8,825 nucleotides of DNA from a virus (lineage: Duplodnaviria > Heunggongvirae > Uroviricota > Caudoviricetes): IMG/VR virus record IMGVR_UViG_2693429621_000011; one strand, given 5' to 3'. Each line of letters starts with the position of its first letter. The first letter of the stretch is position 1. A program made the translations under genes and the position numbers. The notes under the pieces were generated by a model. It saw only the letters and a program-made list of their open reading frames with translations. It was not told where the DNA came from and searched no databases. Shown here piece after piece: positions 4,220 to 8,825 of this stretch.

Positions 4220-5335
4220 ATGAAAATAACGACAGTCGACGTATGCATAATTTGCGGAATTTTTCCGTTGCTGATTTTGCCCCAATTGCCTGGGACATTA
4301 GCCCTTGCGTTTCTGACTCTCTTCGCCTGCGTACTGGCATTTATACCTGTTAAAACCGTCCGTTATATCGCGCTGACGTTGCTGTTTTTCGTTTGGGGCA
4401 TATTATCAGCAAAGCAAATTTTGTGGGCAGGAGAAACCTTAACTGGCGCGACGCAGGATGCAATTGTTGAGATCACTGCTACTGACGGCATGACCACTCA
4501 TTACGGTCAAATTACTTATCTACAAGGTCGACGTATATTCCCTGCGCCAGGCCTTGTGCTGTATGGCGAATATCTTCCGCAAGCGGTTTGTGCCGGACAA
4601 CTGTGGTCAATGAAACTCAAAGTTCGTGCCGTTCATGGTCAACTTAATGATGGCGGCTTTGATAGCCAGCGTTATGCCATTGCCCAGCATCAGCCGCTCA
4701 CCGGCCGCTTTCTGCAGGCAAGTCTTATTGAACCGAATTGTAGCCTGCGTGCACAGTATCTGGCGTCACTACAAACAACGCTGCAACCCTATCCGTGGAA
4801 TGCGGTTATTCTTGGTTTAGGTATGGGGGAACGGTTATCCGTCCCCAAAGAAATCAAAAATATCATGCGCGATACTGGAACGGCGCATTTAATGGCGATA
4901 TCGGGATTGCACATCGCTTTTGCGGTGTTGCTGGCTGCCGGACTCATTCGCAGTGGACAAATTTTTCTGCCTGGGCGCTGGATCCACTGGCAAATACCAT
5001 TAATTGGTGGGATCTGCTGTGCTGCTTTTTATGCCTGGTTGACGGGAATGCAACCTCCTGCATTGCGTACCGTGGTGGCGCTTGCTACGTGGGGAATGCT
5101 TAAGTTAAGTGGGCGACAGTGGAGTGGCTGGGATGTATGGATATGTTGTCTGGCGGCAATTTTGCTGATGGATCCTGTTGCCATTCTCTCGCAAAGTTTA
5201 TGGCTCTCTGCCGCTGCGGTCGCGGCACTGATTTTTTGGTATCAGTGGTTTCCCTGTCCTGAGTGGCAACTTGAGATAGCCGCAGAAGTCCACCAGCGAA
5301 TCGCCCTCGCGTTTTATCACCAGAGCTTCTTCTGA
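4220..5335 (+). CDS. ycaI: ComEC-family inner-membrane protein YcaI, N-terminal ~370 codons only; reading frame ends prematurely where foreign DNA begins (probable disrupted gene or pseudogene fragment)
   Basis: ORF 4142..5335; likely start is ATG 4220 with SD GGGAGGAG upstream (MKITTVDVCIICGIFPLLIL...); multiple hydrophobic helices; full-length E. coli YcaI is about twice this length; its last ~20 codons overlap the 3' end of the opposite-strand primase-like gene. Confidence 0.7.
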   Translation: MKITTVDVCIICGIFPLLILPQLPGTLALAFLTLFACVLAFIPVKTVRYIALTLLFFVWGILSAKQILWAGETLTGATQDAIVEITATDGMTTHYGQITYLQGRRIFPAPGLVLYGEYLPQAVCAGQLWSMKLKVRAVHGQLNDGGFDSQRYAIAQHQPLTGRFLQASLIEPNCSLRAQYLASLQTTLQPYPWNAVILGLGMGERLSVPKEIKNIMRDTGTAHLMAISGLHIAFAVLLAAGLIRSGQIFLPGRWIHWQIPLIGGICCAAFYAWLTGMQPPALRTVVALATWGMLKLSGRQWSGWDVWICCLAAILLMDPVAILSQSLWLSAAAVAALIFWYQWFPCPEWQLEIAAEVHQRIALAFYHQSFF

Positions 5336-6793
5336 TTTCTGCTGCTCATACAGCAGGCGTTTAGCTTCGTCCTGGTCAGAAAAACGAGTAAGCAGGTGGC
5401 GAATCACAACCGCCAGCTCTCCTTCTATTTTTTCTGCCAGCATGGGGTCGCGTTCGTTCTCCGGTACAACTTCCGAAAAATTGAATATCACCCGACGACG
5501 TGAGATCCCCCCGCTGCGGTCACTGAATGACATGGCGTTATTGTTAACCGCCAGCACTACTGCCGGAATACGCGTTGAGTAGGGGGCTTTGTGTTTCGGG
5601 TCAATTGCCACCTTGTCACCGCCTGTAATGGCCTTAATCCCTGCCCCATCACCAGCGTAGCGGGTCATATCCGGCATGATAATCAGCGAAAAGCCAACCA
5701 CTAACGCGCGTTCCCTTGCATCTTCCAGCGCCTTCATGCTTGCCGATACTGTGTTGGCCTTACCCGCCAGCATGGTGCAAATCTCCGCCATCACGCTTTT
5801 ACCACTTCCCCCTGGACCTGTTACCTCAATGAATAACTGCCAGTCGTACCGGTTCGCCAGCACCATGAATAATACAGCCAGTACGCGATCCGCCTTGCGG
5901 TCATTCTCAGCCACCGAACGGCGTAACCACTTCCAGAAATTCGGCGCATGTGTTGCCAGCGTTTCCCCCTCTGCTGGTGGGCTGAAAGGTAATTCACTGG
6001 CAATTAACAACCAGTCGTTTTTGTTATGCTCCCGAAAATTACCTGTTCTGGTATCAAATACCCCGTTACTGAATCCAATCAGGTTACGGGCTGTATTCCC
6101 CATTACAGGCAAACTTAACTTCATGGTATCGACCGCCGATTTAATGGCGTTCTGCGAATAGCTGATCTCCGCATCAATGAAAATCTGTGCCATAGCTCGC
6201 TGTAATTCTTTATCCTGTACTGGCTCCCATACAACGCCGTTGTAATGGTGAACAGTGTCAGAGTCAGCATGAATCGCCAGTTCACCGCCATAATGTGCCA
6301 GGAGAACTTCGCCGCGTTGACTTGCTCCCATCTGGTTAAGCGCCAGTGATGAAGCGTTATCGTCTTTTACCCGCTCTTTTTTCTTTACAGGCAGTTCAAC
6401 TACCTTTTTCTTTTCCGCCTGCTCTGCCCGTTCACGTTCCAGATATTCGCGCCAGTTCTCCCGTTTCTGGCTGTGCATTCCTTCAGGGTAATAATCAGCA
6501 TCCCTGACACCTGCCGCTGCCAGTTTCTGCCCGATGGTATTAACAAGCCCCGGACGCAATAACCCCGCCTGGTAGAGACGCACCCGATAGCGTCCGTCCG
6601 GTACGATTTGCAGCTTATCCAGTTCGGCAAGTTGTTGTTCTCCAAGCCAGACAGGAGGCACGCTGTCGCCAGCCAGTCGCCCGTCCTGTTCCTGCCACTG
6701 CTTCGCATGTGCCCACGCATCATTACCCGCAAAAATGATGACTTCCGTCATTTTGTCACGCGGCTGGTGTTTTAAATTTGGCGCTTTTTTCAT
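5198..6793 (-). CDS. Phage/plasmid primase-helicase-like replication protein (D5-N-like region plus P4-type primase C-terminal NTPase domain, Walker A GPGGSGKS), ~531 aa
   Basis: ORF 5198..6808; likely start is ATG at 6793-6791 (SD GGAGAG ~7 nt upstream) overlapping the stop of the upstream gene as ATGA; Walker A motif TGPGGSGKS and downstream hydrophobic strand LVVGFSLIIMPD typical of SF3/P4-alpha-type NTPases; the last ~27 codons read antisense through ycaI-derived sequence. Confidence 0.75.
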   Translation of the reverse strand: MKKAPNLKHQPRDKMTEVIIFAGNDAWAHAKQWQEQDGRLAGDSVPPVWLGEQQLAELDKLQIVPDGRYRVRLYQAGLLRPGLVNTIGQKLAAAGVRDADYYPEGMHSQKRENWREYLERERAEQAEKKKVVELPVKKKERVKDDNASSLALNQMGASQRGEVLLAHYGGELAIHADSDTVHHYNGVVWEPVQDKELQRAMAQIFIDAEISYSQNAIKSAVDTMKLSLPVMGNTARNLIGFSNGVFDTRTGNFREHNKNDWLLIASELPFSPPAEGETLATHAPNFWKWLRRSVAENDRKADRVLAVLFMVLANRYDWQLFIEVTGPGGSGKSVMAEICTMLAGKANTVSASMKALEDARERALVVGFSLIIMPDMTRYAGDGAGIKAITGGDKVAIDPKHKAPYSTRIPAVVLAVNNNAMSFSDRSGGISRRRVIFNFSEVVPENERDPMLAEKIEGELAVVIRHLLTRFSDQDEAKRLLYEQQKSEEALVIKREGDSLVDFCGYLKLPLRTGKPLIPKNQCRDRSGREP

Positions 6794-7089
6794 TTCTGCT
6801 CTCTCCACGCGGCAATCATGTTTTTCAGTTCCTGTAGTTTTTTATCAACATCCATACATGACACATGGTTATTTCTGGAAAGCGGGATTTCCCGCCTGAA
6901 TCTGCTAATAAAGATCTCCACGTTCAGCGAACTATGAAATGAATAGCCATCACGAATAAAATACACACGGTCAAACATCAGTTCTTTTACCGTTACTCTG
7001 TTACCGTTCTTATCCAGATAAATAGCGCCGGGGATAATTTTGGGGTGTGCATAACCGCTGGCAGTCAAGCCAGATAAATACGTTCTCAT
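6790..7089 (-). CDS. Hypothetical protein, 99 aa, second gene of the leftward operon
   Basis: ORF with ATG start 6 nt after the stop of the upstream 106-aa gene; its TGA stop overlaps the ATG of the primase-like gene (ATGA coupling); no recognisable motif. Confidence 0.55.
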   Translation of the reverse strand: MRTYLSGLTASGYAHPKIIPGAIYLDKNGNRVTVKELMFDRVYFIRDGYSFHSSLNVEIFISRFRREIPLSRNNHVSCMDVDKKLQELKNMIAAWREQK

Positions 7090-7095
7090 GATTAT

Positions 7096-7416
7096 TTATC
7101 TCAGATTTGAATCAGTATTCGCTTTCTCTATGGCATTTAATGCATCTGTGGCATTTTCAATGGTGCACCGTAACGAAATATCAAACTGCCCAAGCATTGC
7201 CAGTAACAAGCCAATATTACCCATGTCAATGCGCATAGCCTTTTCGTCATATTCCTCATTTTCTGACGCATGCCACATCAGGCTACCAATTGACGCAACA
7301 GCCATTGATATATTGTCAGTAGCCCCATCCGCAGCGGAATAAACCTTTTTAGCAATATCATGCTCACAGTTAAAATGCGGATTAATCAGGTACTGGTAAT
7401 TGGTCATGTCAGGCAT
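7096..7416 (-). CDS. Hypothetical protein, 106 aa, first long gene of the leftward operon
   Basis: ORF 7096..7458; best start is ATG 7416-7414 preceded by a perfect SD AGGAGG with 6-nt spacer; acidic small protein; no recognisable motif. Confidence 0.6.
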   Translation of the reverse strand: MPDMTNYQYLINPHFNCEHDIAKKVYSAADGATDNISMAVASIGSLMWHASENEEYDEKAMRIDMGNIGLLLAMLGQFDISLRCTIENATDALNAIEKANTDSNLR

Positions 7417-7606
7417 GGCACACCTCCTGACGAATACGGGCGGCGAATACAGCAACACAACCTGACGGGCAACGGTTACGCGCTTCGCGTTCCGTCCAGG
7501 CGGTTACGTGGATGATTTGAGATTCTCCGGCACTCAGGGCCAGAAAACGCCACACAAAGGCCGTTTGTGTGTGTACAAGGTGTGGTATATGATTTACGGC
7601 AACCAT
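7409..7606 (-). CDS. Candidate small leader ORF (65 aa) in the operon leader; ends 5 nt inside the start of the 106-aa gene
   Basis: ATG 7606-7604 preceded by SD GAGGAG with 5-nt spacer; stop TGA 7411-7409 overlaps the ATG at 7416-7414 of the next gene (ATGCCTGA); contains the hairpin at 7551-7571; an antisense ORF with SD-like sequence also exists, so the call is tentative. Confidence 0.3.
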   Translation of the reverse strand: MVAVNHIPHLVHTQTAFVWRFLALSAGESQIIHVTAWTEREARNRCPSGCVAVFAARIRQEVCHA

Positions 7607-7708
7607 AACGGCTCCTCGTTTACGTTGTTGGTTAGAAGCCCTGCGAGTGGTAACGACACTTGCGGGGCTTCGTCGTTTCAATTGCTGAATTGCATGTATC
7701 AGCACTTG

Positions 7709-7763
7709 TGGTATTCACATTACATTTAGGTGAATACCATTTCAAGTCTTTTTTGGTATTCAC
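7709..7763. promoter_or_regulatory. Candidate operator array / RNA switch: 10-bp motif TGGTATTCAC at 7709-7718 and 7754-7763 (direct) and its exact reverse complement GTGAATACCA at 7730-7739; overlaps a putative leftward promoter (-35 TTGAAA, 17-bp spacer, -10 TAATGT on the minus strand)
   Basis: Three exact 10-mers within 55 bp of the divergent intergenic region between the leftward replication operon and the rightward RHH gene. Confidence 0.5.
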
Positions 7764-7806
7764 TTTTGTATTACACTGCATCCCGTTATTAATGGGAGGT
7801 GCAAAC

Positions 7807-8112
7807 ATGTCCAGGAGTTCTGTTAACAATAAGTCACAGCAACTGAATGCCAGATTTCCACATGAAGTAGTGAGTGGCATTGAGGCATCCCTACAGCCAG
7901 GGGAAACTAAAGCGAATTTTATAGTTACGGCTGTACGCGGTGAGATCGCCAGGCGCCAGGCAGAAGGAAGTGGAGAAAATCCCCTTGTGTCTTCACTGGA
8001 TGCCCTAGCTAATGTCGAACAAATCGGCATCAAGGCAGCGGAGGAAATCGGGCAGCTTATCACCGTTGCACGCGAAGAACTCCAGCGCCGCAAGGCCAAA
8101 GAATCAGAATAA
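7807..8112 (+). CDS. Putative ribbon-helix-helix DNA-binding regulator (resembles YlcI/YnfO-like prophage proteins), 101 aa
   Basis: ORF 7660..8112; best start is ATG 7807 with SD GGGAGGTG 7 nt upstream; N-terminal pattern NARFPHEVVSGIEASL...ANFIVTAVRGEIARR fits a beta-strand/helix/helix (RHH) DNA-binding fold; acidic C-terminal tail. Confidence 0.6.
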   Translation: MSRSSVNNKSQQLNARFPHEVVSGIEASLQPGETKANFIVTAVRGEIARRQAEGSGENPLVSSLDALANVEQIGIKAAEEIGQLITVAREELQRRKAKESE

Positions 8113-8169
8113 TCACTATCAGCGCCGTGGTGTGAGGAACTCCGGCGCATTGCTTTACAGGCGCACACA

Positions 8170-8346
8170 ATGACCAACGAAGAATCAACCAAAAAAACAT
8201 CACCTGCACGAAAAAGACGACGCAGAAAGAAAGAGCATGAATCAGAACGATTCGCGCCGTGTTCTTTTGCCCTTGAGAAGTACCTTAAAGAATACTCATC
8301 AAAGGAGAGAGCTTCGCAGTTATGGCAACGCACTGAAACAGACTGA
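8170..8346 (+). CDS. Possible small basic protein (58 aa); the frame is ambiguous, with an alternative 50-aa ORF in the +1 frame at 8237..8389
   Basis: ATG at 8170 with Arg/Lys-rich N-terminus (KKTSPARKRRRRKK); no convincing SD; below the length cutoff of the supplied ORF track. Confidence 0.2.
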   Translation: MTNEESTKKTSPARKRRRRKKEHESERFAPCSFALEKYLKEYSSKERASQLWQRTETD

Positions 8347-8410
8347 TAGCATTGCCCACCAGCCTGATAGCGGCTATCATTGACATGCTTATGTTTAGTG
8401 TTTCCAAACT

Positions 8411-8438
8411 GGCGACCGCCCCAGGTCGCCTTTGTTTT
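8411..8438 (+). terminator. Rho-independent terminator: stem GGCGACC/GGTCGCC (8411-8417 / 8424-8430), loop GCCCCA, then TTTGTTTT
   Basis: Perfect 7-bp GC-rich stem followed by a T-run; ends the rightward RHH transcription unit just before the convergent alpA-like gene. Confidence 0.65.
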
Positions 8439-8457
8439 ATGTGTCATATGCTCCCCT

Positions 8458-8667
8458 TTACACTGCCTTACCTGAATTAATGCGATCCCGGCTTTTAACC
8501 CATTCCATAACCTCGGACAGCAGCCACCCTACAGAACGACCGCCCAGATTAAGACGTGACGGAAAGCGCCCTTTTTTCTCCAGTTCGTAACGTGTAGTGC
8601 GGCACACTCCAGTTAACTTACGACATTCATCCTCACGGATTACGCGATCTTCATTTATTTCACGCAT
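8458..8667 (-). CDS. alpA: AlpA-family prophage transcriptional regulator / excisionase-like helix-turn-helix protein, ~69 aa
   Basis: ORF 8458..8754 begins with a GTG that abuts its own SD-like AAGAGG, so the internal ATG at 8667 is preferred; core VIREDECRKLTGVCRTTRYELEKKGRFPSRLNLGGRSVGWLLSEVMEWV matches the AlpA/Vis-type pattern (..TG.SR.T.Y.....G.FP....LG.R.VGW...E...W). Confidence 0.65.
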   Translation of the reverse strand: MREINEDRVIREDECRKLTGVCRTTRYELEKKGRFPSRLNLGGRSVGWLLSEVMEWVKSRDRINSGKAV

Positions 8668-8825
8668 ACAAAAACCTACATAAAAATTACGTATATAAAC
8701 TTTTCTCTTAGCTGTAGATATATGAGATCGGATATTACTTAGATTCTTTTTCACCTCTTAAATTAAAAACACAACCATGCTGGTAATGACTCCAACTTAT
8801 TGATAGTGTTTTATGTTCAGATAAT

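Follow-up and report, generated by a model that had tools for sequence, protein, structure and literature searches.

The window analysed here is the whole 8,825-nucleotide (nt) stretch of IMG/VR virus record IMGVR_UViG_2693429621_000011. Near its right end, the minus strand carries the start of the early (replication) operon of a mobile island, headed by a 65-codon open reading frame (ORF) of the Icd/Kil family. Between this gene and its predicted promoter lies a conserved inverted repeat. This study concerns the repeat and a short RNA, predicted to be antisense to the icd-like gene (icd below), that would end at it. The features needed for the argument are the following.

7409–7606, minus strand: icd/kil-like gene, 65 amino acids (aa), family NF033153, heading the early (replication) operon of the island.
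7612–7617, minus strand: Shine-Dalgarno (SD) sequence GAGGAG of icd, read from the sequence, with a 5-nt spacer to the ATG at 7606–7604.
7635–7671, plus strand: terminator-like hairpin of 15 bp including two G·U pairs, with a 7-nt loop, −27.9 kcal/mol.
7672–7682, plus strand: U-rich tail GUCGUUUCAAU, with 4 U in 10 nt in the window, weaker than in most relatives.
About 7600–7682, plus strand: predicted cis-antisense RNA of ~80 nt, its 5' part opposite the icd start codon and SD sequence, its 3' part the terminator hairpin and U-rich tail.
7588–7593, plus strand: candidate antisense −10 hexamer TATGAT, in icd codons 5–7 (Asn-His-Ile), overlapping a supposed partial operator at 7581–7588.
7565–7570, plus strand: tentative −35 hexamer TTGTGT, 17 nt upstream of the −10 and invariant in the main haplotypes.
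7717–7745, minus strand: leftward early promoter, with −35 TTGAAA at 7745–7740, a 17-nt spacer and −10 TAATGT at 7722–7717.
7551–7571, minus strand: hairpin inside the icd ORF, encoding HTQTAFVW, not supported as an element of its own.

The ORF at 7606–7409 matches NCBIfam profile NF033153 (phage_ICD_like) over positions 1–48 of 48 with 64.8 bits (cut-off 25), and its homologues in public genomes are labelled 'host cell division inhibitor Icd-like protein' by NCBI's PGAP (Prokaryotic Genome Annotation Pipeline). By this match it belongs to the Icd/Kil family, a recognised gene family. P4 Kil scores 73.9 bits against the same profile; pairwise BLASTP gives no alignment between window Icd and P4 Kil, so their homology is visible at profile level only. 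The window protein may be harmful or inhibit host division, the family name being only an annotation. A first-pass annotation of this DNA had noticed the 65-codon ORF, its GAGGAG motif with a 5-nt spacer and its overlap with the next gene start, all of which are present; it took the ORF for a possible leader peptide, a role that gives way to membership of the Icd/Kil family. The icd stop overlaps the ATG (7416) of the downstream 106-aa gene by 8 nt (ATGCCTGA), as it does in relatives. The distance of about 300 nt reported between the promoter and the 106-aa gene holds, with the −10 at 7722–7717, but the region is not a long untranslated leader, since 198 nt of it are the icd gene and the true 5' untranslated region (UTR) measures about 105 nt from an mRNA start predicted near 7710. 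A leftward early operon under an operator-controlled promoter, also proposed earlier, is borne out; of 43 distinct upstream regions, whose operators are unrelated, 36 show the positionally conserved arrangement TTGACR/TTGAAA, 16–18 nt, TAnnnT, which ends 97–111 nt ahead of the ATG. The 98-aa extended form of the ORF (7705–7409) has no Ash domain in Pfam, and the hairpin is therefore not a translated Ash region.

Relatives were collected as 80 IMG/VR loci, 2 genome loci and 9 contigs (individual loci are numbered with the prefix L). The scan of genome contigs gave just these 2 loci because that collection holds one genome per species; one of them, L003, is of the C4 type described below and was dropped from the hairpin alignment. 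A hairpin stands at the position of 7635–7671 in almost all relatives, in 19 distinct sequence versions and with variable loop length. In the alignment (A2, 34 distinct variants by 13 pairs, 441 cells), 98.9% of the cells are paired, versus 38–56% when the partner is slid by 1–3 columns, and double-sided (compensatory) changes occur at two pairs, A-U with C-G at one and G-C with C-G at the other, in 12 sequences each. The 69 cells that do not form Watson-Crick pairs distinguish the two strands: they are 64 G·U pairs and 5 mismatches on the plus strand, versus no G·U pair and 69 mismatches in the icd-sense RNA. These G·U states are spread over at least 6 different pairs. When 90 nt are folded, the antisense strand is the more stable in 29/29 variants, by 8.4 kcal/mol on average, and five further hairpins outside the test set all favour the same strand. 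On the minus strand the window hairpin has two mismatches and reaches −18.5 kcal/mol. Over the family, a mean of 5.4 U falls in the 10 nt behind the stem on the plus strand, versus 1.0 in the icd sense.

The G·U polarity and the U-rich tail on the plus strand thus point to an intrinsic terminator of a plus-strand RNA, and that 7635–7671 has the anatomy of such a terminator is the best-supported fact of the sequence analysis. Because all genes to the left lie on the minus strand, a plus-strand transcript ending here must be antisense to the operon. The inverted repeat of the first-pass annotation is consequently real, and with its 15-nt arms longer than described; what falls is its placement in the structure of the minus-strand leader. 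The covariance across relatives that was proposed as a check on the leader does find 7635–7671 conserved, but with a polarity that favours the plus strand.

A plus-strand transcript that starts at or before 7604 and ends at about 7682 covers both the icd ATG (7604–7606) and its SD sequence. Since the sense promoter lies upstream of the hairpin, the icd mRNA holds the full complement of such an RNA. The segment 7600–7682 folds with a minimum free energy of −38 kcal/mol (z = −5.31; 0/200 shuffles as good). A covariance model of the predicted RNA, R1, matches the window at 7598–7688 (plus strand) with 94.5 bits and also matches copies outside its training set in L067, L047, L093 and L094. The model scores 54 bits against vB_KppS-Ant, an induced satellite with an Icd of only 59% identity, at a locus that combines a sense promoter, a hairpin favouring the antisense strand and TATGCT 10 nt before the complement of the start codon. 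No R1 match is found in P4 or in the C4-type loci. The RefSeq records annotate no RNA feature at the module, no Rfam 15 family matches the predicted RNA, and we found no description of such an RNA in the literature on Icd-like genes, PICIs (phage-inducible chromosomal islands), P4-like elements or the small RNAs (sRNAs) of O157.

The start of the predicted RNA would lie near 7600, judging from the −10-like hexamer. TATGAT or TATGCT occupies this fixed site in 19/19 coding haplotypes and is the sole TANNNT of the first 60 nt in 18 of them. The hexamer recurs in three N-terminal contexts (MVAVNH, MAGTQH and M(R/L)NH), is kept in the diverged loci L084–86 and L094 and persists in lineages whose N-terminus is two codons shorter. 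Its −11 A is the third base of the His codon, a synonymous position. The Icd proteins of the C4-type loci (MATTP...) lack the Asn/Gln-His codons that encode it. In L084–86 the −35 is absent and an extended −10 (TGnTATGAT) stands in its place.

Several points weigh against a dedicated antisense RNA. The −35 hexamer TTGTGT is poor and is not conserved in L084–86, and coding constraint, together with the close relatedness of most sequences, confounds the evidence of a conserved −10, 25 of the first 40 alignment columns being invariant anyway. Another promoter-like site on the plus strand (7349–7376, TTAGCA-16-TAAAAT, 9/12 matches) lies inside the 106-aa gene. The window tail GUCGUUUCAA has only 4 U in 10 nt, and a stricter scan misses the terminator. 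A 5' stem AACCA/UGGUU, considered as a conserved part of the RNA, was rejected because it exists in the main type and not in L084–86. The window copy, standing in a truncated island fragment, may be non-functional, and the antisense RNA is itself a prediction. As an observation apart, the site at 7349–7376 could yield an antisense transcript of ~300 nt over the whole of icd with the same terminator end.

We infer from these features that the antisense RNA is transcribed and represses icd. The explanation that we favour, and hold to be fairly probable as a whole, takes the region for the regulatory front part of a Gram-negative PICI-type phage satellite's early (replication) operon, in which hairpin and promoter together form the gene for a cis-antisense RNA of ~80 nt repressing icd. 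The operator-controlled leftward promoter, with its start near 7710, would produce an mRNA with a 5' UTR of ~105 nt and icd as its first gene, whose translation would be coupled to that of the 106-aa, DUF4222 and primase genes downstream. Products of the Icd/Kil type are described in P1 and P4 as inhibitors of division or as proteins that kill the cell. The antisense promoter (TTGTGT-17-TATGAT) in the first icd codons would give a plus-strand RNA from near 7600, its transcription heading towards the early promoter 110 bp away and being halted by the terminator ~30 nt short of it. By pairing with the translation-initiation region of icd, this RNA would keep ribosomes from binding, and either the 8-nt gene overlap or polarity would extend the effect to a lower expression of the replication genes downstream. 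Leaky expression of a harmful protein could in this way be kept off while the island is repressed. The idea of a regulatory RNA put forward in the first-pass annotation is therefore retained as a predicted cis-antisense RNA of the opposite strand, and abandoned as a processed piece of the leader.

The strongest competitor, which we consider unlikely while granting it some weight, holds that the hairpin is only a guard terminator, stopping stray antisense or read-through transcription from entering the region of operators, promoter and repressor gene, with no dedicated RNA. It draws directly on the best-supported fact, the polarity of the terminator, and on its position ~30 nt before the early promoter and operators; the evidence for the antisense promoter, moreover, is at consensus level, and the second plus-strand site at 7349–7376 could be a source of transcripts. 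However, selection for a terminator implies plus-strand transcription, and all genes to the left are on the minus strand. A −10-like hexamer is held at a fixed distance in diverged lineages, and the remnant module of L067, whose icd is broken, still has both hexamer and hairpin. Any transcript ending at this site would in addition necessarily overlap the icd ribosome-binding site.

An Hfq-type sRNA acting mainly in trans on host or helper-phage mRNAs, its overlap with icd being incidental, is an improbable reading that accepts the RNA as real. A hairpin with a U-tail is typical of Hfq-binding sRNAs, UGGUUAGA just before the terminator is invariant in all variants beyond what pairing in cis needs, and pathogenic E. 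coli has known examples of sRNAs that are encoded on islands and act in trans (PMC5286369). But the 5' part of the RNA comes in four unrelated versions, each complementary to its own SD region, which suits a cis-antisense RNA and not a conserved seed. A role in trans would nevertheless be compatible with the favoured cis-antisense RNA, the two not being exclusive. Directly 5' of the terminator stem, at 7628–7635, lies the octamer TGGTTAGA (plus strand; TCTAACCA in the mRNA), which changes little or not at all among the variants, and the SD region flanking it has the four unrelated versions. This octamer could be a site for Hfq or an RNase, or could pair with the AUGGUU start region.

A model along the lines of the first-pass annotation has minus-strand leader structures acting in cis, as an attenuator or a stabilising 5' hairpin, or giving rise to a CI-like RNA, and this we hold to be very improbable. 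The sense RNA does form an imperfect hairpin of −18.5 kcal/mol, the 5' UTR folds with z = −3.3, and the operon layout parallels that of P4. Yet the strand test largely refutes the model, all 69 of 69 non-Watson-Crick cells being mismatched on the minus strand, and that strand has no U-tail (1.0 U in 10 nt). C4, isrK and c4-a1b1 are absent from 7350–7850 in Rfam searches even at E ≤ 10, with a positive P4 control. The hairpin at 7551–7571, which a scan had called terminator-like among 3 such sites in the region (1.8 ± 1.3 expected), exists as reported, with an 8-bp stem of CACACAAA and TTTGTGTG and the tail GCGTTTTCTG on the minus strand. It lies within a translated ORF, however, and its fold is at chance level (−9.9 kcal/mol, z = −0.06, 83/200 shuffles equal); absent from L084–86 and from the icd genes of the C4-type loci, it was rejected as an attenuator or other element.

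Very little credence, lastly, goes to a DNA-level element, either a palindromic protein site or a single-stranded DNA hairpin such as a priming or packaging signal: inverted repeats beside operators often bind proteins, palindromic sites also change symmetrically and single-stranded hairpins tolerate G·T, but there are 19 stem and loop sequences with variable loop lengths, a T-rich tract immediately behind the stem is what marks an intrinsic terminator, the strand asymmetry is incompatible with recognition as a duplex, and the hairpins combine freely with at least 10 unrelated operator/repressor types, so that nothing points to a binding protein that co-varies with them.

As a kind of mechanism, the control of a ribosome-binding site by a cis-antisense RNA is known from phage immunity regions. 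The sar RNA of the P22 immI region is a short cis-antisense RNA whose promoter faces a strong regulated promoter and which has its own terminator; like the RNA predicted here, it overlaps a ribosome-binding site, that of ant, and represses translation within an immunity region. The sar target is an antirepressor and its setting a phage, whereas here the target is icd, the setting is a satellite and no Rfam family matches. Type I toxin-antitoxin pairs such as SymR/SymE and Sok/hok have a short constitutive antisense RNA with a hairpin and U-tail over the 5' end of the toxin gene. Their resemblance to the predicted module is that an antisense RNA covers the start region of a small protein that may do harm, but Icd-like proteins are not membrane peptides, and icd heads a long repressor-controlled operon whereas type I pairs are stand-alone two-gene cassettes.

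The closest relation in operon position and target is the CI RNA of P4 and C4 RNA of P1 and P7 (RF01695), which act on the translation-initiation region of a first gene of the Icd/Kil family: kil/eta in P4 and icd-ant in P1, with C4 at the same position in sister PICIs. CI/C4 also governs downstream replication or antirepressor genes through this first gene, as would the RNA proposed here. The differences are that CI/C4 is processed from a leader of the same strand and pairs through short loop sequences, while the predicted RNA would come from the opposite strand, be fully complementary and use a promoter and a terminator of its own, and it is not matched by the C4 model; in addition, the operon here has a divergent gene for a likely protein repressor, with operators, which C4-type loci lack. 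P4 Kil is described as a cell-killing product controlled by CI RNA (PMC10111431 section 20; PMC4825925 section 21), and C4/isrK hits have been reported in 'several' PICIs, without an antisense RNA (PMC10111431).

C4 (gathering threshold 45 bits) was sought upstream of icd/kil. P4, in the order promoter, seqA, CI RNA, icd-like gene (kil/eta) and further on primase, served as control and gives C4 at 74.9 bits, with isrK (RF01394) and c4-a1b1 (RF03163) at 60.8 and 44.1 bits in the seqA region; the sister loci L003 and L087–92 give C4 at 77.7–78.7 bits. Rfam at its gathering thresholds finds nothing in the whole window, and the permissive microRNA and small nucleolar RNA matches in 7350–7850 were discarded as spurious products of the operator palindromes. 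The earlier comparison with the left operon of P4, with its promoter, seqA, CI RNA and Icd-like Kil, was thus apt, but the processed CI-like leader RNA deduced from it has no counterpart here by Rfam, although P4 and the sister islands have one. On the whole, the first-pass annotation placed its sequence features correctly, and most of them were read on the wrong strand or misinterpreted.

Two types of loci can be told apart cleanly. C4-type loci (L003, L087–92 and P4) have isrK and C4 upstream, no divergent small gene and no R1 match; icd genes of the 'MATTP' form have an isrK-like sequence and C4 upstream and no divergent small gene. Antisense-type loci, with an 'N/Q-H' icd, have the antisense module and a divergent small gene with operators, and no C4 upstream. 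Megablast blocks stop exactly at the 5' edge of the hairpin, indicating that icd and hairpin move together while repressor/operator sets are swapped. The module is carried by 823 of 5,426 complete E. coli genomes. Blastn with the module against the phage collection gave no match; tblastn against other collections gave one satellite-like record, then used as a test case, and the plasmid collection gave 3 partial matches.

Some islands have stacked modules of immunity type (L067 560–2261, L047 1674–2933 and L090–L092 1359–1924). The L067 segment holds a remnant antisense module with a broken icd, a complete antisense module with icd, and a C4 within a 169-aa ORF resembling Ash and Icd; in L090–92 two C4 copies flank icd upstream and downstream. 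Annotation pipelines at times stretch the icd ORF over what are in fact RNA genes, or place 'ash family' ORFs there. In L094 (LR881103.1) an annotated 324-aa 'hypothetical protein' on the icd strand (1700–2674) spans the start of the divergent repressor gene, the promoter/operator region and the hairpin before running into icd; this call is probably over-extended, the real gene being likely the ~61-aa icd from about 2487. In P4 (L001) the Pfam family PF10554 'Phage_ASH' matches residues 22–85 of the old 'cI' ORF at 8168–8584 (minus strand). As this match crosses the CI RNA (C4 at 8420–8507), it seems that translation of an RNA gene underlies PF10554 at least in part, and where an 'ash family protein' is labelled beside an icd-like gene, the label may mark a C4 RNA.

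The neighbours of icd on the island are the following.

7096–7416, minus strand: 106-aa gene coupled to icd, without family match.
7709–7718 (plus), 7730–7739 (minus) and 7754–7763 (plus): three perfect operator copies TGGTATTCAC over the divergent promoters.
7807–8112, plus strand: divergent gene of the YlcI/YnfO family, 101 aa, NF041551 at 60.3 bits versus a cut-off of 30.

The YlcI/YnfO-family product is likely the protein repressor of the module. The octamer TGTGGTAT at 7581–7588, earlier described as a partial operator, is present and identical to 7707–7714, and such a repeat is rare by chance (0.2 expected). A role as operator was rejected: the octamer has 4 mismatches to the 10-bp core TGGTATTCAC and is unchanged in loci with unrelated operators. 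The 106-aa protein has no match in profile searches, Pfam included, and kinship to P4 ORF106 was ruled out because pairwise BLASTP gives no alignment. A strong terminator-like site at 8411–8430 (plus strand; GGCGACCGCCCCAGGTCGCC then TTTGTTTTAT) after the 58-aa ORF downstream of the YlcI/YnfO-family gene probably closes the rightward operon of that gene, just ahead of a convergent AlpA-type gene.

The host part of the window has the E. coli housekeeping genes ycaL, cmk, rpsA, ihfB and ycaI, followed by the mobile island, present as a 3.5-kb fragment (5269–8781) between ycaI on the left and an insertion sequence (IS) end on the right. The minus-strand genes of the fragment are those for a D5_N/DUF5906 primase and a DUF4222 protein, the 106-aa gene and the 65-codon icd; divergently, on the plus strand, come the YlcI/YnfO-family gene and the 58-aa ORF, followed by the AlpA-type gene (minus strand), whose product matches the AlpA profile with 59.9 bits. 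The Rfam int-alpA motif RF02996 occurs in L071 (616–682, 55.2 bits) and was not found in the window. Primase homology begins at 5269, abutting a truncated ycaI (comEC-like) gene with which it is fused in one long minus-strand ORF (5198–6808); this junction occurs in 0 of the 5,426 complete E. coli genomes. Island homology ends at 8781, and the final 44 nt (8781–8825) are a high-copy repeat with a median of 7 places per genome, which we take to be the terminal inverted repeat of IS1.

Gram-negative PICIs were defined by int, alpA, a primase/replication module and late genes in about 10–20 kb; the window copy has neither int nor late genes. The intact relative L093 of E. coli SCEC020022 sits in the portal gene of a lambdoid prophage, in the order int, helix-turn-helix gene (alpA/HTH), BRO, YlcI/YnfO, icd-like gene, 106-aa gene, DUF4222, primase, single-stranded DNA-binding protein and late genes, the latter for capsid, decoration and small terminase (terS). 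L093 belongs to the helper-embedded Gram-negative PICIs, which PMC10111431 describes along with capsid-encoding ones, and it shares their gene order. The window has in common with these elements AlpA, DUF4222 and the D5_N/DUF5906 primase, and differs from them in being a 3.5-kb fragment only.

Enterobacteria very commonly carry PICI and P4-like satellites, but how most of these keep their replication operon silenced is poorly known beyond the CI RNA of P4. A broader proposal, to which we give even chances when its parts are taken jointly, is that the RNA predicted here represents a family of cis-antisense 'immunity' RNAs of ~80 nt that is widespread in Gram-negative PICIs but unannotated, and that about 15% of complete E. 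coli genomes, O157:H7 among them, contain it. These RNAs would have replaced CI/C4 at the same Icd/Kil gene, a passage from immunity by RNA only to a protein repressor combined with an antisense RNA, and together with Icd would form a safety catch on satellite replication akin to a type I toxin-antitoxin system. If so, satellites would possess two interchangeable RNA solutions for the same toxic first gene, one processed from the same strand and the other antisense from the opposite strand, both recombining as modules with many repressor/operator sets. An unannotated sRNA gene would be added to hundreds of sequenced E. coli genomes, O157:H7 included, and the locus would offer a simple system in which to test antisense control coupled to convergent promoters.

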